DNA of 64,000 nucleotides from an uncultured archaeon (GTDB lineage: Archaea; Thermoproteota; Nitrososphaeria; Nitrososphaerales; Gagatemarchaeaceae), in assembly GCA_963817525.1 (NCBI GenBank), contig CAWFOU010000001.1, positions 896,001 to 960,000 on the forward strand, read 5' to 3'. The notes beneath the pieces are model-generated. The model was given only the letters and a program-made list of their open reading frames with translations, made no database searches and was not told where the DNA came from. This document shows, piece after piece, positions 36,606-44,927 of the stretch. The position numbers and the translations under genes were made by a program. The stretch's first letter is position 1; every line of letters begins with the position of its first letter.

Positions 36606-39600
36606 CTAAAAGCCGTAGAGCATGTCCTTCGCGGAGCGGATGGCGACTATCTCTTCGAGGGCCTGCAGGTCGTCCGGGGAGAGGGTGGACGCGTACTTGC
36701 CCTTTAGGATCTTCGCGTCGTGGCTCGTGGGGATCGAGTAGAGGTCCTCGTCCTCCTTGATCGTCCTGCCGAGGGTGGGGCCCTTCACCGAGATGGCCAC
36801 CTGCATACCCTTCCCGGCCTCCGCGATGTTCTTGCCGTTCTCCTGGATCTGCTCGACCACTCCCACCTCCTCCCCCTTCTGGTTCATCAGCCGCACCTTG
36901 GGGCGTAGCCGCCCCGCGAGGACCTCGACCCCGAAGACCGCGGGGTCGTTCCTCCTGAAGAAGTTCCCCTTCAGGGCCTTCACCTTGGCGGGCATCGTCA
37001 CGCTCTGGAGCGCGGTCCTCTCGTCCTCCTCCTTCTCCTTCGCGGCCCACTGGACGTATCCCTCGACCGCGTCGTAGATGACCTCGGAAGTGATTATCTG
37101 GACGCGCTCCGCGCTCTCCTTCGCCTCGGGGAGGACCTTGACGTCGAACCCGATTATCGCGCCCAGGTATGGGTCGCGCTCGGCGACCGCCTCGGCCTCG
37201 ATTATCTCCGCCTTGGAGATGTCCCCGATGTCCGCTAGGCGGACGGGGATGGCCCGCTCCTCGAGCATCTTGAGGAGCGCCTCCAGGCCCCCGATGCTCC
37301 CCGCCTTGACGACGACCCCGACGCTGTCGCTCTTCCGCCTCAGGGTGCTCAGGTCCTTCTCGAGGTCTGTCTTCAGCGTCGCGAACTCGGCCTCGTCCCG
37401 GAAGGTCATGACCGCGGTCCCCGGGATGACCCCCTCGAGGTCGGGGCTGACCAGCTTGACTCCGGCGGCGGCGTAGACCTCTTCCACGGCGGTGAACTTG
37501 TCCCTCGGGTCGCGCATCTCGTCGAGGGGCTTGGGCATGAAGAGTGCCTTGACCTTGGTCTGCGCGGCCCCGTCGCGCTTCACTATCACTATCTTGTCGC
37601 CCACGTGGAGGGTCCCGTCGGTGAGGATGATGTTCGCGGTCTGCCCCATCCCGACCTCCTCCTGGAGCTCGAGGACTATGCCCTTCGACCTCCCCGAGAC
37701 GTCGGCCGCGCCCTGGGCGAGCTTGGTGGTCAGGAACTGCTGGGCGAGCCCGATGAGGACGGCGAGGAGCTCGGGGATGCCCACGCCGTACCTCGCTGAG
37801 ACGGGGACTATCGAGACCTGCTTGCGAAAGTCCTTGATGCGATAGAAGGCCTCCGCCTGGAAGCCAGCCCTGGAGAGCCCGCCGACGACGTTGTAGAGGC
37901 GCTCCTCGAGCTCGTCGTTCCACTCAGGGGGCTGCAGCTTGAGAGCGGCGGACAGCGCGATGCTCCCCTTGCCCGTCACGGTGTCCTTTCGCCAGCCCCT
38001 TATCATGTCCACCTTGTTGAGGGCGACCAGGAAGGGGACGTGCCTCTCCTTGAGTATCTCGATGCTCTCCATCGTCTGGTTCTCGAGGCCCTTCAGGACG
38101 TCGACCAGGAGGATGGCGATGTCAGCGGCAGAGCCGCCGCGCATCCTCAGGTTGGAGAAGACCTCGTGCCCCGGCGTGTCGATGACGAGCAGGCCCGGGA
38201 TCTTCAGCGAGCCCCCCGTTTTCGAGAGAAGGGGGCCGCATATCGCCTCGAGTGTCTCCATCGGGAAGAAGCTGGCGCCGATCTCCTGGGTGATCCCGCC
38301 CGCCTCGCGGGCCTGGACCCCCGTCCCTCTTATTTTGTCGAGAAGAGATGTGTTGTGGATTATCAGGCTGTTGCCAAGGAAGTTGTGATAGTCGTCGACC
38401 GTGAAGTCGTAGACGTCGCATGCCCCTTCGATCACCTGCAAGCCCGAGACTTGGACGCTGGCGTAGTTGTTGATGGTCTCGACGAGAGCCTTGCTGTCGT
38501 AGCCGGGGAGCGCTTGGGGGAGGTGCCTTACGACGTCCCGGCTTATCTTCGAGCGCGTCTGAAAGGTGCTGATCTGGAAGTGCTCGTCCCAGTTGACCCT
38601 CTGACCTTCCCTGATCTTCCTTAGGAACTCACCGGGTATGGGGGTGATGTCGAAGACCCGGTTCGTCTCGGATGTCTGCGTCTTGATCTTTGCTGCCAGC
38701 ATCTTCTCTTTTTCCCCAAAGCCGATCTGGTCGACGAAAGCCCTGACGTTGTCCCTCCCGCTGATGAATACCTCTCTGCTATGGCCGCCCTTCCCGAAAT
38801 AGGCCAGGCAGCCGAACCTCGCGAGCAGCATCGGCAGTTGCCTCATCAGCTCCGCGCCCTCGCACCCGACCCCGATGTTCCTCCCTTCCTGGACGAAACC
38901 TTCCGCGTCGAAGAATCCGCGGAGGAACTTTGCGACGACGGGATCCGGCATCATCGAGATGGTGTCCGGGACGTGGATTGACCTGCTCTTGTCAGCCGTC
39001 GGATAGTCGAAGACCTCCACGAGGAACCGGTGAAGCGACTTGCCACCCTTGTGGCTCACGATGAAGCTCGTCCGGCGCCATGCCTTGCTCGCTCCCACGC
39101 CAAAGGGCAGTTCGAGGTTGATGAGGAAAAGGTCCATCAAGTAAGTGGACGTGTTGGCAAGGTACCCAGATTCCGCGACGCCGTCCCCGAAAAGCAGGCC
39201 GACGAGATACGCTAGGGCCTCGAATCCCTTCTCGTCCTTTGGCACCGCTATCCACGGTGATCGGTGGGAGGCGCGTCTCTTTCGAGAGGCGAACTTCACG
39301 CCTTCGACTTGGTCGTAGGCGTCGGCCAGGGAGATCCCCACCTCCTTGACCGCGTTCCGAAACACGCTCGCTCTGAAGTATCCTTGCTCGAGGTGAAAGA
39401 TGAACTGGGAGTCCCCGAGGTCCTTCCCAACCCTTTGCCTTCGTCCGTTCGAGAAGGCGACCAGCTTGGCTACGAGAGGTTGGGAGGCTCTGACCAGGAA
39501 ATCGTCGGAGAGTCTGGCCAGGATCCTCGACTTGACGGCCTCTAGCCCGTTTGAGGTGACGTTGACCCTCGCGGGGATCACAAGGTGGTCGCCTAGCGAC

Positions 39601-39989
39601 AGACGCTGGGCTTCTACATAGGAGAGCTCCCCGTTGGCAGACATGGCGAGGAACTTGTGCTCGGGGGTGCACCTGACGGCGTAGCCTGCTTTGGTCGTGA
39701 CCTCGATAAGCCGGTCGGCCCTGAGCTTCCAGACGTGCGACGCTCGTTTGGCTATGACCCTACCTTCCGGCGAGGTCGATAGTAGTTCCAAACCCTTCGC
39801 TTCGAAGGAGACGCCGTCTGGTCTTTCGATAGGTTGGCCTGACTTGAATTCCTGGAAGAGCGCGTCCGCCCTGGCCACCCTACCGTCCGCAAGTTGGATG
39901 AGAGTGTCAGCGCTGACGCACTTGCCGGCATCCGTGTGCCCCAGCACGACTACGACTGGTTGTCGGAGTTTTTGTTCTGACTGGGACAT
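36606..39989 (-). CDS. infB: Translation initiation factor IF-2 (aIF5B), intein-containing
   Basis: LRQPVVVVLGH..GK / TSLLDKIR, EAGGITQ, DTPGHE, NKVD, PKPLDEMRDP. Confidence 0.97.
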   Translation of the reverse strand: MSQSEQKLRQPVVVVLGHTDAGKCVSADTLIQLADGRVARADALFQEFKSGQPIERPDGVSFEAKGLELLSTSPEGRVIAKRASHVWKLRADRLIEVTTKAGYAVRCTPEHKFLAMSANGELSYVEAQRLSLGDHLVIPARVNVTSNGLEAVKSRILARLSDDFLVRASQPLVAKLVAFSNGRRQRVGKDLGDSQFIFHLEQGYFRASVFRNAVKEVGISLADAYDQVEGVKFASRKRRASHRSPWIAVPKDEKGFEALAYLVGLLFGDGVAESGYLANTSTYLMDLFLINLELPFGVGASKAWRRTSFIVSHKGGKSLHRFLVEVFDYPTADKSRSIHVPDTISMMPDPVVAKFLRGFFDAEGFVQEGRNIGVGCEGAELMRQLPMLLARFGCLAYFGKGGHSREVFISGRDNVRAFVDQIGFGEKEKMLAAKIKTQTSETNRVFDITPIPGEFLRKIREGQRVNWDEHFQISTFQTRSKISRDVVRHLPQALPGYDSKALVETINNYASVQVSGLQVIEGACDVYDFTVDDYHNFLGNSLIIHNTSLLDKIRGTGVQAREAGGITQEIGASFFPMETLEAICGPLLSKTGGSLKIPGLLVIDTPGHEVFSNLRMRGGSAADIAILLVDVLKGLENQTMESIEILKERHVPFLVALNKVDMIRGWRKDTVTGKGSIALSAALKLQPPEWNDELEERLYNVVGGLSRAGFQAEAFYRIKDFRKQVSIVPVSARYGVGIPELLAVLIGLAQQFLTTKLAQGAADVSGRSKGIVLELQEEVGMGQTANIILTDGTLHVGDKIVIVKRDGAAQTKVKALFMPKPLDEMRDPRDKFTAVEEVYAAAGVKLVSPDLEGVIPGTAVMTFRDEAEFATLKTDLEKDLSTLRRKSDSVGVVVKAGSIGGLEALLKMLEERAIPVRLADIGDISKAEIIEAEAVAERDPYLGAIIGFDVKVLPEAKESAERVQIITSEVIYDAVEGYVQWAAKEKEEDERTALQSVTMPAKVKALKGNFFRRNDPAVFGVEVLAGRLRPKVRLMNQKGEEVGVVEQIQENGKNIAEAGKGMQVAISVKGPTLGRTIKEDEDLYSIPTSHDAKILKGKYASTLSPDDLQALEEIVAIRSAKDMLYGF
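38352..39920 (-). mobile_element. Intein (523 aa) with LAGLIDADG homing endonuclease in the IF-2 P-loop
   Basis: Begins CVSADT after GK, ends VYDFTV..IIHN before T; block B TPEHKF; YLVGLLFGDG and FLRGFFDAEG motifs. Confidence 0.96.
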
Positions 39990-40040: not shown

Positions 40041-40499
40041 CTAGGCGCCGGGCACGGTGAACAGGGCCGATGTGGGGAGGGAGATCGCCACGCCTGAGAA
40101 GGCGACCGCGAAGAAGGTGGCATTGTATGTGCCAGCGGCGAGCCCGAACTCTACCAGCTGGGCGGCGACTATTGCCCCGGGCGCGATGGTCGCGGTGGCC
40201 TCTGAGAAGTAGACCATCTGGCTGGAGTTGTTTCGAAGCACCATGAACACTATCCCAGTCACGCCGACGGTCAGGTGGTTGCTGTAGGACACCGTGTCGG
40301 CCGTGCCGAGCGGTCCGACGCCGGGCGCCGGCGCCCCGACCATCGTCCAGACCGTCGTCCCACCCACGAAGGTGTCCGCCGAAGCGGCCGCGGCTGAGCT
40401 CAGTACGAGTAGCGCCGCGATGGCGAGGCCCGCCGTGAGGGAGGAGTTCACGTAGGTCGGAGAGGGGCGGAGCGTTTTATCTCTTGCGAAAGAGCGCAC
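40041..40499 (-). CDS. Small secreted single beta-sandwich protein similar to the S-layer C-terminal domain
   Basis: Signal peptide; SNHLTVGVTGIVFMVLRN..GLAAGTYNATFF..SGVAIS parallels SlaA TNHSNAPITGFVYAVVHN..GLPPGTYSVTIF..SGTAIS. Confidence 0.75.
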   Translation of the reverse strand: MRSFARDKTLRPSPTYVNSSLTAGLAIAALLVLSSAAAASADTFVGGTTVWTMVGAPAPGVGPLGTADTVSYSNHLTVGVTGIVFMVLRNNSSQMVYFSEATATIAPGAIVAAQLVEFGLAAGTYNATFFAVAFSGVAISLPTSALFTVPGA

Positions 40500-40566
40500 C
40501 GGGGCGGAGCTCCCGCTCGGTGTTGAAAAATAAAGGAGGAGAGCGAAAGGCTCGTAGCCTTTGCTC

Positions 40567-41622
40567 TTAGTTCTTGGCGCCGAACTTCAGAGGACCTAAC
40601 GAGAAGCCGTACTCTTGCTGCTGTGCGAGGAAGGTGCTCTCCACGCCGGTGAGCATGACCATGCACTTTACGCGGCCTTCGAGGGTTGGGTCCACGCGAG
40701 CGCCCCAGACGATCCTGACTCTTGGAGGTAGCGACTTGGTTACAAGTTCGCCTGCCTTGGTGACCTCCTCCAGCGTCACGTCCGAGCCGCCTGTCACGTG
40801 GACGAGTACCCCTTGAGACTTGGTCACGTCCCTGATGTCGAGCAGCTGACCTTCGATGGCTTGCCTGATTGCGACCTCTACCCTGTCGGAGCCCTTTGCC
40901 TCGCCGACACCGATGGCCGCCAGACCCTTGCGCTCACATATGGCGCGGAGGTCTGCGTAGTCGATGTTGATGAGGGAGGCTGTGGTGATGGTCTCGGTGA
41001 TGCCCTTCACGAACTGGCCTACCAGCTCGTTGGCAACTCCCAGCGCCTGCTGTAGTGGCAGGTCGCCTGCGACCTTGGACAGCTTGGTGTTGTCGATGGC
41101 CACGACGGTGTCACAGTACTGGCGGAGAACCTTCAGTGCGTTCTTCGCGTTGTCGTACCTGAACCTCTCTACAGAGAACGGCAGAGTCACGACGCCTATC
41201 ACTAGGCGGCCCTGCTTCTGCAGCTCCTTGGAGAGCACTTCTATCGCGCCCGTGCCGGTGCCTCCTCCGAGGCCTGCGCACAGGAAGATGATGTTGCTGT
41301 TTTGTGTTTCCTTCTGGAAGTCCTCAAGCGACTCCCTTGTCGCTGCCGCACCGCGCTGTGGGTACCCTCCGGCACCCTGGCCGTGCGTGAGCTTCTCACC
41401 GATTAGGATCCTGCGATCCGCCTTGGTGATGCTGAGGTGTGCTGCGTCTGTGTTGGCGGCAATGAGCTTACCGCCGGCGATGCCTCGTTCCTTGATCCAC
41501 GAGACAATGTTGCTTCCGGCTCCGCCGACACCTATGACGGTGACGTTTGGCTTTGCCATCCGCATCACTGCTGCGATCTTTTCGGCTTCTATGAAGTCCA
41601 TTCCTTCGTTGCTTACTTCCAT
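40567..41622 (-). CDS. ftsZ: Cell division protein FtsZ
   Basis: GVGGAGSN, NTD, GLGGGTGTG, T7 loop INIDYADL, IVWGA. Confidence 0.95.
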   Translation of the reverse strand: MEVSNEGMDFIEAEKIAAVMRMAKPNVTVIGVGGAGSNIVSWIKERGIAGGKLIAANTDAAHLSITKADRRILIGEKLTHGQGAGGYPQRGAAATRESLEDFQKETQNSNIIFLCAGLGGGTGTGAIEVLSKELQKQGRLVIGVVTLPFSVERFRYDNAKNALKVLRQYCDTVVAIDNTKLSKVAGDLPLQQALGVANELVGQFVKGITETITTASLINIDYADLRAICERKGLAAIGVGEAKGSDRVEVAIRQAIEGQLLDIRDVTKSQGVLVHVTGGSDVTLEEVTKAGELVTKSLPPRVRIVWGARVDPTLEGRVKCMVMLTGVESTFLAQQQEYGFSLGPLKFGAKN

Positions 41623-41778
41623 CTTGACACTGCTATAGAAGAATTTTCTACATAACGCTTATGAATTCTGATAAGTTAACATCCGCCGAACACTAACCTA
41701 ACGCGGCATTCAGACACTTTTGTTAAAATAATTTGCTCAAGCTTATTAATGCCAAGCGAGTCCTTATCTTAACGTGTC

Positions 41779-42360
41779 TTGACGTCCGCCGAGCCGGCCG
41801 CGCAGCCCATAACCATCATAGAGCTCATGTCGGGCTGGGCCAGGGACAACGGAGTCATACTCAGGAGCAGGATACCCGCAGAGAAGAAGGTCCTGGCCGC
41901 GATAATGTGCGCATCGGGCTACACCTATCGTGACACGTCGAAGATACTCGGCGGGATCTCCCATGTCGCGGTGCACGACGCCCACAAGAACTTGATGGCG
42001 GCCCTGCCTCCTCTGCAAAAGAAGAGGAGGGAGGTGAACATAGAGGAGAACGTGGTCGACCTCAACGCCGAGACGAAGGCGGTGATTTGGCTGGCGAGGG
42101 ACGAAGACAGCGGGGAGATACTGTCCTTCCGCTGCTCCACGACCAGGTCTCCCATGGACCAGAAGAAGTTCATCGACTCCGTTCTCTCGGTGTGCACCGA
42201 AAGGCCCCTCCTCAAGGTGGAAAGGGGTTCGAGCTATCCGAATTCTCTGAGGCAGCTGGACCTATATTTCCAGATAGTGCCGACGGGCACCCCCATCAGG
42301 AAGAGGATAACGAGCTTCTTCCTAGGCGCTTCTGAGCCCGAGCCCAAAACGAAGAGCTAG
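41779..42360 (+). CDS. IS6-transposase-derived protein with all three DDE positions substituted (probably domesticated)
   Basis: HTH GYTYRDTSKILGGISHVAV; KKRREVNIEEN (cf. AIDET); IWLARDEDSGEIL; PLLKVERGSSY (cf. VDRG.WY); RITSFF (cf. RIE.FF). Confidence 0.75.
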   Translation: MTSAEPAAQPITIIELMSGWARDNGVILRSRIPAEKKVLAAIMCASGYTYRDTSKILGGISHVAVHDAHKNLMAALPPLQKKRREVNIEENVVDLNAETKAVIWLARDEDSGEILSFRCSTTRSPMDQKKFIDSVLSVCTERPLLKVERGSSYPNSLRQLDLYFQIVPTGTPIRKRITSFFLGASEPEPKTKS

Positions 42361-42453
42361 AGAGGCCGTTAGGCCAACGAACTTTCGGGTGGGAGGGGCT
42401 CTAGGCCCTTTTGCGCTTCGGCCTCGGCCGGAGCGCGATGGACCTGAAGAGTA

Positions 42454-42819
42454 TCAAGCGGGAGGACATGCCCTCTCCAACACCATGCCTATCGCTCTGG
42501 TCCTTGCGGTCGCCATCTCCCCCTCCGTGCCGCACCTCGAGTAGCAGTCTGAGGCCCTCTGCACGAAGAAGAGCGCCTGCGAGACCTTGCGAGGCACGGG
42601 GGACGCGTCGCCCGCGAGGGTGAGCTGACCCGCCGTCTCGTACCAGAAGCCCGCCTCGGCGTTCTCGCCGACCTTCTCGAGGTCGCCCGCTATCCATTCG
42701 CAGACGCTGTCCCACTCGGAGGAGGCCTCGATGTCGTCGAGGACGCTCATCAATGATCTTACCGCACTACGATAGTCCCCCGTCTGCTCCAGCGCGAGGG
42801 CTCGCGATACTTGACCCAT
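42454..42819 (-). CDS. Small helical-repeat (TPR/SNAP-like) hypothetical protein
   Basis: GDYRSA, EAGFWYETAG, RASDCYSRCG patterns. Confidence 0.55.
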   Translation of the reverse strand: MGQVSRALALEQTGDYRSAVRSLMSVLDDIEASSEWDSVCEWIAGDLEKVGENAEAGFWYETAGQLTLAGDASPVPRKVSQALFFVQRASDCYSRCGTEGEMATARTRAIGMVLERACPPA

Positions 42820-43661: not shown

Positions 43662-44927
43662 GTGGCAGCCACAGACGACGTCGAGGACAAGGTGGCAGAC
43701 CACCTTGTCAAGAACGGCGACGACCTCCATTTCACTAGGTGGTTCTGGAAAGGGTGCGAACCCCTTCCAAGAGATGTGGCGGCCTATTCCAAATTCGCCG
43801 GGTTGGTTTCAGACTATTCGAAAGGAATCAAAATAGTCCCGGAGGGCATGGGGGTGGGATTGGGTTCGTCCGTATCGTGGGCCACTCAGACTACCATGCC
43901 CAAGCTTGGACACTATCTTACCGCCTTCATCAAGCTGGGAACTCCGGGGGAGGGAATGGTCTGGCTGACCATGGAGTGTACCCACGGTCAAGCTATTCCC
44001 GTGGGCCCTTTCCTTCAGGTCCCAAGCGAGGTTCGGTCTTGGAGAGATATTGAGCAGGCTTTGGCCCAAATCGGGTCTCCGGCAGACCACAATCCGCGAT
44101 TCAGCAAGGCGTATCTTTTTGGGTTTCTCGTGGGGATAATCATTGGCGACGCTCACAAGCCGAAACAAGGTCACAGCCATAGGCACATCAATGTCACACT
44201 AAGCAAAAGGTACGAGACGAATCTCTCAATCGGAGACTTCGCGACTTATTGCGCCAATCAACTTGGACTGCGGATGGAGAGAAAGCCGGATCTGCCAAAG
44301 CCAGAGGACAAGCCCTACGGATTCTATGTTTGGGCCTCCCAGTCCTCGCCTTTTGTCGACTGGATTTTCAATGTGGTCCTTGGCTTGGAAGATGGTCAAC
44401 ACACGACCTACGACGCTGTTCGGATGGACTGGGCATTTGAAGCGCCCCTCGACTTCCGACTAGGCATCATACACGGAATCGCCGAATCAGACGGCTCCGT
44501 GAGCGTGGCGAGTCAGACGGTCGAGTTCTGGGTGATTCCTGACTGGGACTTCATGATCAAGCTGCTCGCCACCTTTGGACTCAAGGGGTTTCGAAACAGA
44601 GAAGCCGTCTCGTTGGTAAAGACGCAGGCAACAGATTCCTTCAGGGTTCCGGTCTTCGCGGCGCATCTTCGGACGACCAGGTACGCCCTCCTGGAGCTTA
44701 TGGCGACGACGAGAAAGCTTGACAAGAAGGAAAGAATTCCCTCTGACGTTCGACAAGAGATAGTTCGACTCGCCGCGGAGGGTTGGTCGATTCCGAAGAT
44801 CATTGTTGAAATCGCTAGAACGCGGAAGCTACTAGTGTCCTTCGAGGCAGGACAGCGCTGGGCGAGGAAAAGCGGTAAGTATCAGCCTAAATCTAGGCAG
44901 CCTTCAAAAGAGGAAAATATTACGTAA
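43662..44927 (+). mobile_element. Free-standing two-motif LAGLIDADG endonuclease-like gene with C-terminal HTH
   Basis: YLFGFLVGIIIGDA and FRLGIIHGIAESDG motifs; no intein splice residues; antisense insertion between rps28e and rpl24e; lower GC than neighbours. Confidence 0.8.

Follow-up and report, generated by a model that had tools for sequence, protein, structure and literature searches.

A probable domesticated IS6 transposase head-to-head with ftsZ in Nitrososphaerales: a candidate regulator with operator-like boxes from a transposon end

Why would a gene that reads like a transposase stand head-to-head with a cell division gene, and what might its product do there? The question is raised by a 193-aa open reading frame (the ORF; 41779-42360, plus strand, TTG start) in the 64,000-nucleotide window analyzed here, which comes from an archaeal genome assembly whose 15 contigs total 2.82 Mb (completeness, 95%; contamination, 8.75%). 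A first-pass annotation took the ORF for an IS6-transposase derivative co-opted as a DNA-binding protein, possibly a regulator of ftsZ. As described below, domestication of the ORF is well supported, and a DNA-binding mechanism that uses operators derived from the ends of an insertion sequence (IS) is strongly suggested by sequence comparison. The ORF is of interest as a candidate regulator of a cell division gene in a phylum for which, to our knowledge, the control of division is almost a blank.

Layout of the locus

The ORF diverges from a canonical ftsZ (40567-41622, minus strand, 351 aa), which scores 319 bits against TIGR00065 (cutoff of 295) and is one of three canonical ftsZ paralogues in the genome. 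The two genes have a 156-bp control region in common (41623-41778), correctly described at first pass as AT rich and divergent: its GC content is 37%, compared with 60% for the whole window. With the genes for a 152-aa protein on the ftsZ side and a 121-aa protein on the ORF side, they make up a four-gene block (40041-42819) between aIF5B and NDK. The frame is intact, and its GC3 of 0.82 falls inside the range spanned by its neighbors (0.63 to 0.92), in agreement with the earlier description of an open frame with host-like codon usage. The start codon was examined in a spacer alignment of ten genomes of g1, the genus of the window genome (g2, g55, g56, g57, and g59 denote other genera of the same Nitrososphaerales family). 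Apart from the window genome, six have TTG in the start column, two have ATG, and in one the start is shifted by 1 or 2 bases. The TTG start is supported because TTG or ATG is kept at the same column in these relatives.

Is the ORF transcribed? Contigs from metatranscriptomes cover the ftsZ of close relatives in four of four runs. For the ORF itself, a 538-nt contig that is 88% identical covers 41788-42325 in one of the four, and in a second run, a 152-nt contig covers 147 nt. These data consist of contigs only, with no strand, ends, or levels, and uncovered stretches such as the spacer are uninformative; the contigs give a weak hint of ORF transcription, with DNA carry-over possible.

A remote IS6 homologue that has lost its triad

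How good is the case for descent from an IS6 transposase? The ORF matches the NCBIfam IS6 profile (NF033587) over residues 29 to 168 with an E value of 1e-7 and 31.8 bits, which does not reach the family cutoff of 125, and it matches Pfam DDE_Tnp_IS240 at an E value of only 0.06. An AlphaFold2 (AF2) model made from a 58-sequence alignment has a pLDDT of 86.7, with residues 171 to 186 below 50. The model begins with a four-helix domain (helices at 13-23, 34-45, 50-57, and 62-75) and continues with a core ordered beta1-3/alpha/beta4/alpha/beta5 (strands at 85-94, 100-108, and 114-120, a helix at 125-136, and a strand at 144-148), which is an RNase H-like fold. The protein can thus be divided into a helix-turn-helix (HTH) region at about residues 12 to 78, an RNase H-like core at about residues 84 to 170, and a low-confidence tail from residue 171. 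The top Foldseek matches of the model are DDE transposases (ISCth4, Mu, and Mos1), retroviral integrases, and RNase H; the best E value is 6e-5, but the TM scores are low (0.2 to 0.36). The first-pass derivation from IS6 is borne out by this combination of a weak profile match, a predicted fold, and low-TM matches to DDE enzymes. By sequence and model, the ORF is a remote but real IS6-transposase homologue and is catalytically dead.

Alignment to the transposase of an IS6 element on contig C7 of the same genome (IDET / ADGG / IERFF..K) places the triad columns of the ORF at E89, E148, and T178. The substitutions D>E, D>E, and E>T proposed at first pass are accurate for the ORF itself but do not describe its family. 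Among 58 family members, the first column is split between D (36), E (21), and Q (1); the second is mostly G (52), with three E and three D; and the third has G (27), S (21), T (6), E (2), A (1), or Q (1). The E-E-T combination is limited to the ORF and its two closest relatives. What the family does have in common is the loss: a complete DDE triad occurs in 0 of the 58, compared with 31 of the 33 nearest nonfamily representatives (202 to 252 aa), and D-D-E is also present in both of the live IS copies described below. The missing C-terminal helix was likewise called correctly. The ORF, like the rest of its family, ends about 15 residues past the third triad column and lacks some 35 to 45 C-terminal residues, and all family members (174 to 193 aa) fall below the range of active IS6 transposases (213 to 254 aa in the portion of the source available [PMC7986276]). 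As for terminal inverted repeats, none of the IS type flank the ORF within 41560-42560, as had been noted, but the cores of such repeats, and no more than the cores, survive as a pair upstream of the gene.

Copy number, orthologues, and selection

The window genome contains the ORF once, as expected of a domesticated gene, and one other IS6-related copy, the distant (33%) intact IS6 on contig C7. Orthologue matches (E value of ≤1e-5) were found in 47 of 97 genomes of the family, with one match per genome in all but a few, and these exceptions are mostly fragments or split matches. A search of 5.8 billion proteins returned 105 clusters, most of them 60 to 89% identical to the ORF and 180 to 195 aa long, together with about 20 shorter fragments and four that are only 38 to 44% identical. 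A profile search of 1.84 billion representatives gave 13 proteins at an E value of ≤1e-30, after which the scores drop to transposases of normal length. Among the copies that have their stop codon inside the fetched contig, 40 of 42 were intact at 174 to 193 aa, down to 36 to 49% identity across genera. The other two, in the g1 genomes G128 and G131, have a frameshift or an altered C terminus.

Are these frames maintained by selection? The NG86 estimate of dN/dS has a median of 0.165 in g1 (range, 0.09 to 0.32; 28 pairs from 8 genomes) and is 0.188 in g2 (124 usable of 153 pairs). Since the dS of ORF pairs is about 1 to 1.5, near saturation, these ratios are rough, yet they are far below 1, as co-option would have it. 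By part, dN/dS is 0.11 for the HTH and 0.17 for the RNase H-like portion; for comparison, it is 0.085 for ftsZ and 0.19 for the gene of the 121-aa neighbor. The ORF thus appears from its codon substitutions to be under purifying selection, the RNase H-like part included, dead though it is. Single-copy orthologues at conserved loci, purifying selection, and the loss of both catalysis and element ends together speak for domestication. All of the checks for domestication that were proposed at first pass gave a positive outcome.

Live relatives and the origin of the family

Two live elements illuminate where the ORF came from. The C7 element of the window genome is 767 bp long; its 14-bp terminal repeats (GATACCGTTAAGAT) are perfect, and it has a target duplication of 8 bp (GCTTCTAG). 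The other, in genome G019, is 717 bp long, with perfect 15-bp repeats (GATGTTGTTAGGATA) and with D, D, and E in place; that genome has five protein matches and at least two IS copies that are 99.7% identical. At the protein level, the G019 IS is 42% identical to the ORF and the C7 IS6 is 33% identical. A quick maximum likelihood (ML) tree puts the 21 family rows on one side of a branch with an SH-aLRT of 94 and makes the G019 IS the sister of the whole ORF family with an SH-aLRT of 99. The repeat cores of both elements match the boxes found upstream of the ORF (CGTTAAGAT in C7 and TGTTAGGATA in G019), and the G019 IS seems, on reading its sequence, to have its repeat core once more, inverted, beside its start codon.

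Transposon-end boxes in the ORF promoter

What remains of the element lies in the spacer. The box nearest the ORF (41763-41776, minus strand, CACGTTAAGATAAG) scores 19.2 bits and ends 3 nt before the TTG; on the plus strand, 41764-41773 within it reads TTATCTTAAC. Its inverted partner (41719-41732, plus strand, TTTGTTAAAATAAT; 14.9 bits) lies 44 bp away. Between the two is a conserved AT-rich block (41739-41751, plus strand, AAGCTTATTAATG) that is presumably the BRE/TATA of the ORF promoter. The scores refer to a 14-nt matrix (consensus, TCTGTTAAGATAAT) built from non-g1 sites only, to which the window genome contributed none. In those other genera, GTTAAG occurs at -53 to -71 of the ORF in 37 of 37 loci and the inverted partner C[TC]TAAC at -8 to -26 in 36 of 37, at a spacing of 41 to 46 bp. 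CTGTTAAGATAA and A.CTTAAC have a high information content, which falls to near zero across most of the sequence in between.

How specific are these boxes to the locus? A scan of the window genome with the matrix gave 28 matches of at least 13 bits, of which the proximal box ranks first, and both ends of the C7 IS6 are in the top 7. The 156-bp spacer alone holds 4 of the 28 (starting at 41667 plus, 41692 minus, 41719 plus, and 41763 minus), and the pair at 41719 and 41763 is the only inverted pair with a spacing of 36 to 51 bp in the 2.8-Mb genome. The bare core ATCTTAAC[GA] is found 10 times genome-wide, compared with about 14 expected by a hand estimate from base composition, so it is not enriched. 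Among the top 20 single matches, the eight other intergenic regions examined adjoin unrelated genes (histone deacetylase, gas-vesicle, Toprim, Rpb5, and unknown) and were set aside as noise.

On the ftsZ side, the most conserved block of the spacer (41658-41680, plus strand) reads CTTATGAATTCTGATAAG, then TTAAC, and is located 36 to 58 nt ahead of the ftsZ start. It hardly varies among 10 genomes despite an ORF dS of about 1.2, and CTTATGAATTCTGATAAG is unique in the genome. Within this block is box A (41667-41680, plus strand, TCTGATAAGTTAAC; 13.6 bits), and box B follows at 41692-41705 (minus strand, CGCGTTAGGTTAGT; 13.2 bits). Some caution is in order, as boxes A and B score only 13.2 to 13.6 bits and sit in an AT-rich spacer. 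A further box lies 7 to 9 nt from the ftsZ start in five of the nine g1 relatives scanned, and 49 nt from it in one; the window genome has none in that position.

Do the boxes occur at other fixed sites? A second pair (TGTTAAGATAA-N31-33-TTATCTTAACA) lies between a PAP2 gene and PGK at five loci in genera g2 and g55; in the three loci that were read, the boxes and their spacing are kept and the spacer has diverged. The matrix scan of the window genome found no cassette of the PAP2/PGK type. In five good g2 genomes, the exact pattern GTTAAGAT-N25-45-ATCTTAAC picked out only the PAP2/PGK cassette, in one of the five, a pattern that is too strict because the ORF promoters carry one-base variants. 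Where a g2 or g55 ftsZ, which may not be orthologous, sits 1.3 to 4.4 kb from the ORF, the 400 nt upstream of that ftsZ contain no box of at least 12.5 bits. No match at that threshold was found upstream of cdvA in any locus examined, and direct control of cdvA by the ORF protein is therefore unsupported.

Conserved boxes at two unrelated chromosomal sites, each with a randomized spacer, look like the footprint of a sequence-specific DNA-binding protein. The box pair, derived from an IS end and bracketing the ORF promoter, is a new element of the present analysis. Operator-like boxes were absent from the first-pass annotation, and their conservation strengthens its proposal that the transposase was co-opted to bind DNA.

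The company the ORF keeps: ftsZ and cdvA

If the protein binds DNA, which genes might it serve? Syntenic orthologues beside ftsZ do exist. The ftsZ of the window (at 94 to 96% identity) is found in 10 of 22 other g1 genomes, and in 9 of these 10, the ORF lies head-to-head with it; in the tenth (G118), the contig stops at the ftsZ start. The remaining 12 have neither an ftsZ of this type nor the ORF. In the closed genome G125, from a sister subclade, NDK abuts aIF5B and the four-gene block is missing. The stretch 40041-42819 therefore represents one insertion or deletion, and the co-occurrence within g1 counts as one event, not many. Outside the genus, the head-to-head arrangement recurs in g57 (G135) and g59 (G138). 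An ftsZ tree (FastTree) groups g1 with g59 at 0.98 and leaves the base, where g57 joins them, unresolved, and in a midpoint-rooted ORF tree, g57, g59, and g1 branch before the g55/g56/g2 group (two forks of 91 to 94, unstarred).

Elsewhere in the family, the neighbors are different. The order M50-AN1 peptidase then ORF is found in 25 of 38 non-g1 loci and is usual in g2, g55, and g56. In 15 loci, cdvA follows downstream on the same strand, 0.4 to 2.4 kb on, and a conserved reading frame separates the two genes in 14 of the 15; Pfam identifies the two copies scanned as DCC1-like thiol oxidoreductases. Among 19 g2 genomes with both the ORF and a CdvA match, the two are within about 3 kb in 16 and not in 2, and 1 is ambiguous. 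Of 55 g2 genomes, 30 have the ORF and 7 have a canonical ftsZ. The ORF is thus kept in g2 genomes that lack canonical ftsZ, and ftsZ therefore cannot be its only purpose. In the window genome, which is 95% complete, CdvA, Snf7, and AmoA profiles gave no match, with weak or silent controls for Snf7 and AmoA, and these genes may yet be present.

A proposed path from transposase to regulator

How might a transposase have come to this position? We propose that an IS6 element related to the live 717-bp IS became fixed in the ancestor of the family, probably just upstream of ftsZ, and there shed its outer ends along with the C-terminal helix and one or more catalytic residues. It would have retained the HTH, the RNase H-like scaffold, and, of the terminal repeat, the inner segment to which a transposase binds. 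The repeat core CTGTTAAGATAA would now form the inverted pair, about 44 bp apart, around the TATA-like element and the start site. Most likely, the ORF protein uses its HTH to bind these boxes and is a repressor of its own promoter; self-repression is proposed from the placement of the boxes on either side of the TATA-like element and the start site. The circuit was probably inherited from the IS, to judge from the repeat core beside the start codon of the G019 element. With boxes A and B 45 to 83 nt upstream of the ftsZ start, the protein probably modulates ftsZ as well, and the dead RNase H-like part may serve in multimerization or stabilize the binding of DNA. We infer the binding to the boxes, the sign of the regulation, and any effect on ftsZ from this arrangement. 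With a live progenitor type, a dead descendant, an inherited site, and a conserved promoter architecture all visible, the case is unusually legible.

These steps do not all deserve the same trust. That the protein was domesticated to bind DNA at specific sites and regulates itself seems quite likely. That it also regulates ftsZ in the window genome is drawn from geometry, namely, the common spacer with its four matches and the head-to-head synteny in three genera, and here our doubts slightly outweigh our belief. The reading as a whole, an exapted IS6 transposase that acts as a site-specific autoregulator and probably coregulates ftsZ, is the one toward which we lean, by a small measure. The weightiest points against the ftsZ link are the g2 genomes that lack ftsZ, the lack of boxes at g2 and g55 ftsZ and at cdvA, and the single insertion or deletion in g1. 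The box pair may also simply be inherited transposase autoregulation, which alone says nothing about a function for the host.

What else could the ORF be? One possibility, rather unlikely in our view, is a domesticated DNA-binding regulator for which ftsZ is not a target, its adjacency being inherited synteny of the insertion site. Its function would then be autoregulation plus targets such as the PAP2/PGK cassette or the cluster of M50-AN1, DCC1-like, and cdvA genes. Most ORF-bearing g2 genomes do without canonical ftsZ, the second box pair is conserved at five loci in two genera, and the M50-AN1 and DCC1-like neighbors recur in 25 of 38 non-g1 loci and 14 of 15 cdvA loci, respectively, all of which speaks for such a regulator. 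However, the only box pair of the window genome and 4 of its 28 matches are in the ftsZ spacer, the PAP2/PGK cassette was not found there, the eight other intergenic single matches adjoin unrelated genes, and the head-to-head arrangement with ftsZ is that of the early-branching g57, g59, and g1 (midpoint rooting; forks of 91 to 94, unstarred). At the other extreme is a dedicated division-gene switch, in which a dead IS6 transposase and its end sequence were recruited first to control ftsZ at the insertion site and later came to lie in a cluster with cdvA. We think this decidedly unlikely; if true, it would be an archaeal transcription factor derived from a DDE transposase, with transposon-end operators, that controls the cell cycle. 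The hosts concerned are soil Nitrososphaerales that have both FtsZ/SepF-type and Cdv-type division genes.

Truncated inhibitor proteins of Tn5 or IS1 are the model for a very unlikely alternative, a transposition inhibitor kept by the host, in which the dead transposase would bind IS6 ends and protect the genome from newly arriving IS6 transposases, by competition or by poisoning. The boxes and the repeats of the live C7 IS6 have one and the same core, both ends of that element rank in the top 7, and ORF-bearing genomes of the family are mostly free of other IS6 matches, whereas several ORF-less genomes from other families of the order have three to seven, many of them broken. But genomes of the same family that lack the ORF are also free of IS6 matches (E value of ≤1e-5), so the contrast disappears, and an inhibitor leaves the box pairs at fixed sites (its own promoter and PAP2/PGK) and the long synteny with division genes unexplained. 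Highly improbable is a partner of FtsZ, the divisome, or the nucleoid that acts by protein contact and not via specific DNA sites. It is suggested by gene neighborhood only (adjacency to ftsZ in three genera and, in another, cdvA at a distance of two genes) and is at odds with an HTH that is the most constrained part of the protein, with the conserved cognate boxes, and with the persistence of the ORF where this ftsZ is missing. Finally, could the ORF be a dying, immobile IS remnant without function? The frameshifted or altered copies in two g1 genomes and the absence of the gene from roughly half of the genomes searched in the family fit such decay, which is nonetheless scarcely credible given the 40 of 42 intact copies, down to 36 to 49% identity across genera, a dN/dS of about 0.17 to 0.19, and promoter boxes kept while the spacer between them was randomized.

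Comparison with known systems

How does the autoregulator favored here compare with systems already described? The closest is the family from which it descends. According to the available excerpts on IS26, its transposase Tnp26 binds the inner part of the 14-bp terminal repeat via its N-terminal HTH region, with TGT essential; the isolated N-terminal fragment is a much weaker binder than full-length Tnp26, and IS6 repeats have a common inner cTGTt motif. Tnp26 and the ORF both have an HTH at the N terminus ahead of an RNase H-like core, their motifs W.A.D..G/SxE(I/L)L and P...(V)DxG..Y align, and the ORF boxes carry the inner CTGTT of the family as these excerpts give it. They differ in that no member of the ORF family has a full DDE triad or the length of an active transposase (174 to 193 aa versus 213 to 254 aa) and in that the ORF, single-copy at a fixed locus, has neither flanking repeats nor a target duplication. 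The live G019 and C7 elements are set apart from the ORF by the same features, being full length with perfect 14- to 15-bp repeats and D-D-E plus K, and in the case of C7, by the 8-bp duplication.

In eukaryotes, DDE transposases exapted as regulators, with transposon ends as their binding sites, are well documented, and these transposase-derived transcription factors have lost catalysis and reuse target recognition at host promoters. The same principle is seen in the TldR proteins of bacteria, repressors derived from TnpB that, in the accounts available in part, have lost catalysis and recognize targets at host promoters. TldR is RNA guided, as described there, whereas the ORF has a DDE transposase as its source, a proposed protein-DNA recognition of element-end sites, and an archaeal host. 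A search of the full-text literature turned up no IS6-derived regulator in archaea and none paired with ftsZ, consistent with the first-pass statement that no description of the pairing was known.

For the proposed role, the nearest parallels are CdrS of haloarchaea and aCcr1 of Sulfolobales, small ribbon-helix-helix transcription factors that, in the published excerpts, control ftsZ2 or cdv genes. The likeness is confined to that role, a small DNA-binding protein encoded beside a division gene and acting on it. As far as those excerpts go, CdrS and aCcr1 are of cellular origin and have the ribbon-helix-helix fold, whereas the ORF is of transposon origin with an HTH and an RNase H-like part, and its regulation of ftsZ is only proposed; further, CdrS is cotranscribed with ftsZ2, and the ORF is divergent from ftsZ. 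Nitrosopumilus, according to the part of the source available, divides with Cdv and has an FtsZ that does not polymerize. Canonical FtsZ and SepF are patchy in the host phylum, and their presence beside a Cdv system is unexpected.

Further sites for the candidate operator

Where else does the box, described by a 14-nt matrix built from the promoters of the ORF in other genera, occur? One place is a cassette of 52 to 53 bp between a PAP2 gene and the gene for phosphoglycerate kinase, 5 to 8 kb from the ORF homologue in the relatives' loci L036, L037, L038, L039, and L052 (e.g., L038:14618-14670). It reads TGTTAAGATAA-N31-33-TTATCTTAACA and is kept in two genera, the spacer between the boxes having diverged. 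The ORF protein probably has its second target here. A near-perfect box, scoring up to 22.6 of 23.7 bits, also lies within the coding sequence of the ORF homologue itself (+241 to +274) in 8 of 9 genus-mates (L031-L034, L083-L085, and L087), where it spans the codons for Y-L-N. The ORF of the window's own genome, G000 (window 41779-42360, plus strand), has V-D-L-N at this position, and the box is absent. Scanning with the matrix also picked out a 1.3-kb stretch of G000 devoid of any long ORF (contig C7, 578136-579435), with matches of 15.0 and 14.2 bits set 214 bp apart.

Division genes and the ftsZ-ORF pair

G000 encodes three canonical FtsZ paralogues and SepF alongside a divergent thaumarchaeal FtsZ-like gene (entries for this set at C1:485042-486088, C1:1149321-1150298, C1:1086153-1086368, and C1:65487-66209); profile searches of this genome gave no match to CdvA or Snf7. 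Canonical FtsZ is patchy across the family and missing from 12 of the 22 genus-mates, which hints that close relatives differ in their division machinery.

For the same genome pairs, the median dS is 0.38 for ftsZ (window 40567-41622, minus strand) versus 1.2 for the adjoining ORF. The lower ftsZ value may reflect strong codon bias in that gene or its recombination among relatives. Two genus-mates carry altered ORF homologues: a frameshift splits the gene in G128 (L087), and the C terminus is changed and lengthened in G131 (L033). Either these are cases of real decay, or they are assembly errors.

Neighboring genes and a related element

The aIF5B/IF2 gene (window 36606-39989, minus strand) is interrupted after GHTDAGK by an intein some 515 residues long, which begins with C and ends in ..IIHN, followed by T. 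The intein is polymorphic within the genus, since residues 31 to 545 are absent in L032, L033, and G125 and present in L031, L034, and G118. An ORF of 421 aa (window 43662-44927, plus strand) is kept in relatives at 54 to 67% identity; a Pfam search returned no family except a weak HTH_23 match. By eye it has two candidate LAGLIDADG-like motifs, ..FGFLVGIIIGDA.. and ..GIIHGIAESDGS...

G019, a genome with an insertion sequence related to the ORF, carries a 717-bp IS6-type element (L040:5878-6594 and L041:5746-6462). The two compared copies are 99.7% identical, and there are five protein matches in the genome. The transposase frame contains an in-frame TAG, located after its second D and before its E. 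Either the element was recently killed yet still spreads in trans, or its stop codon is read through.
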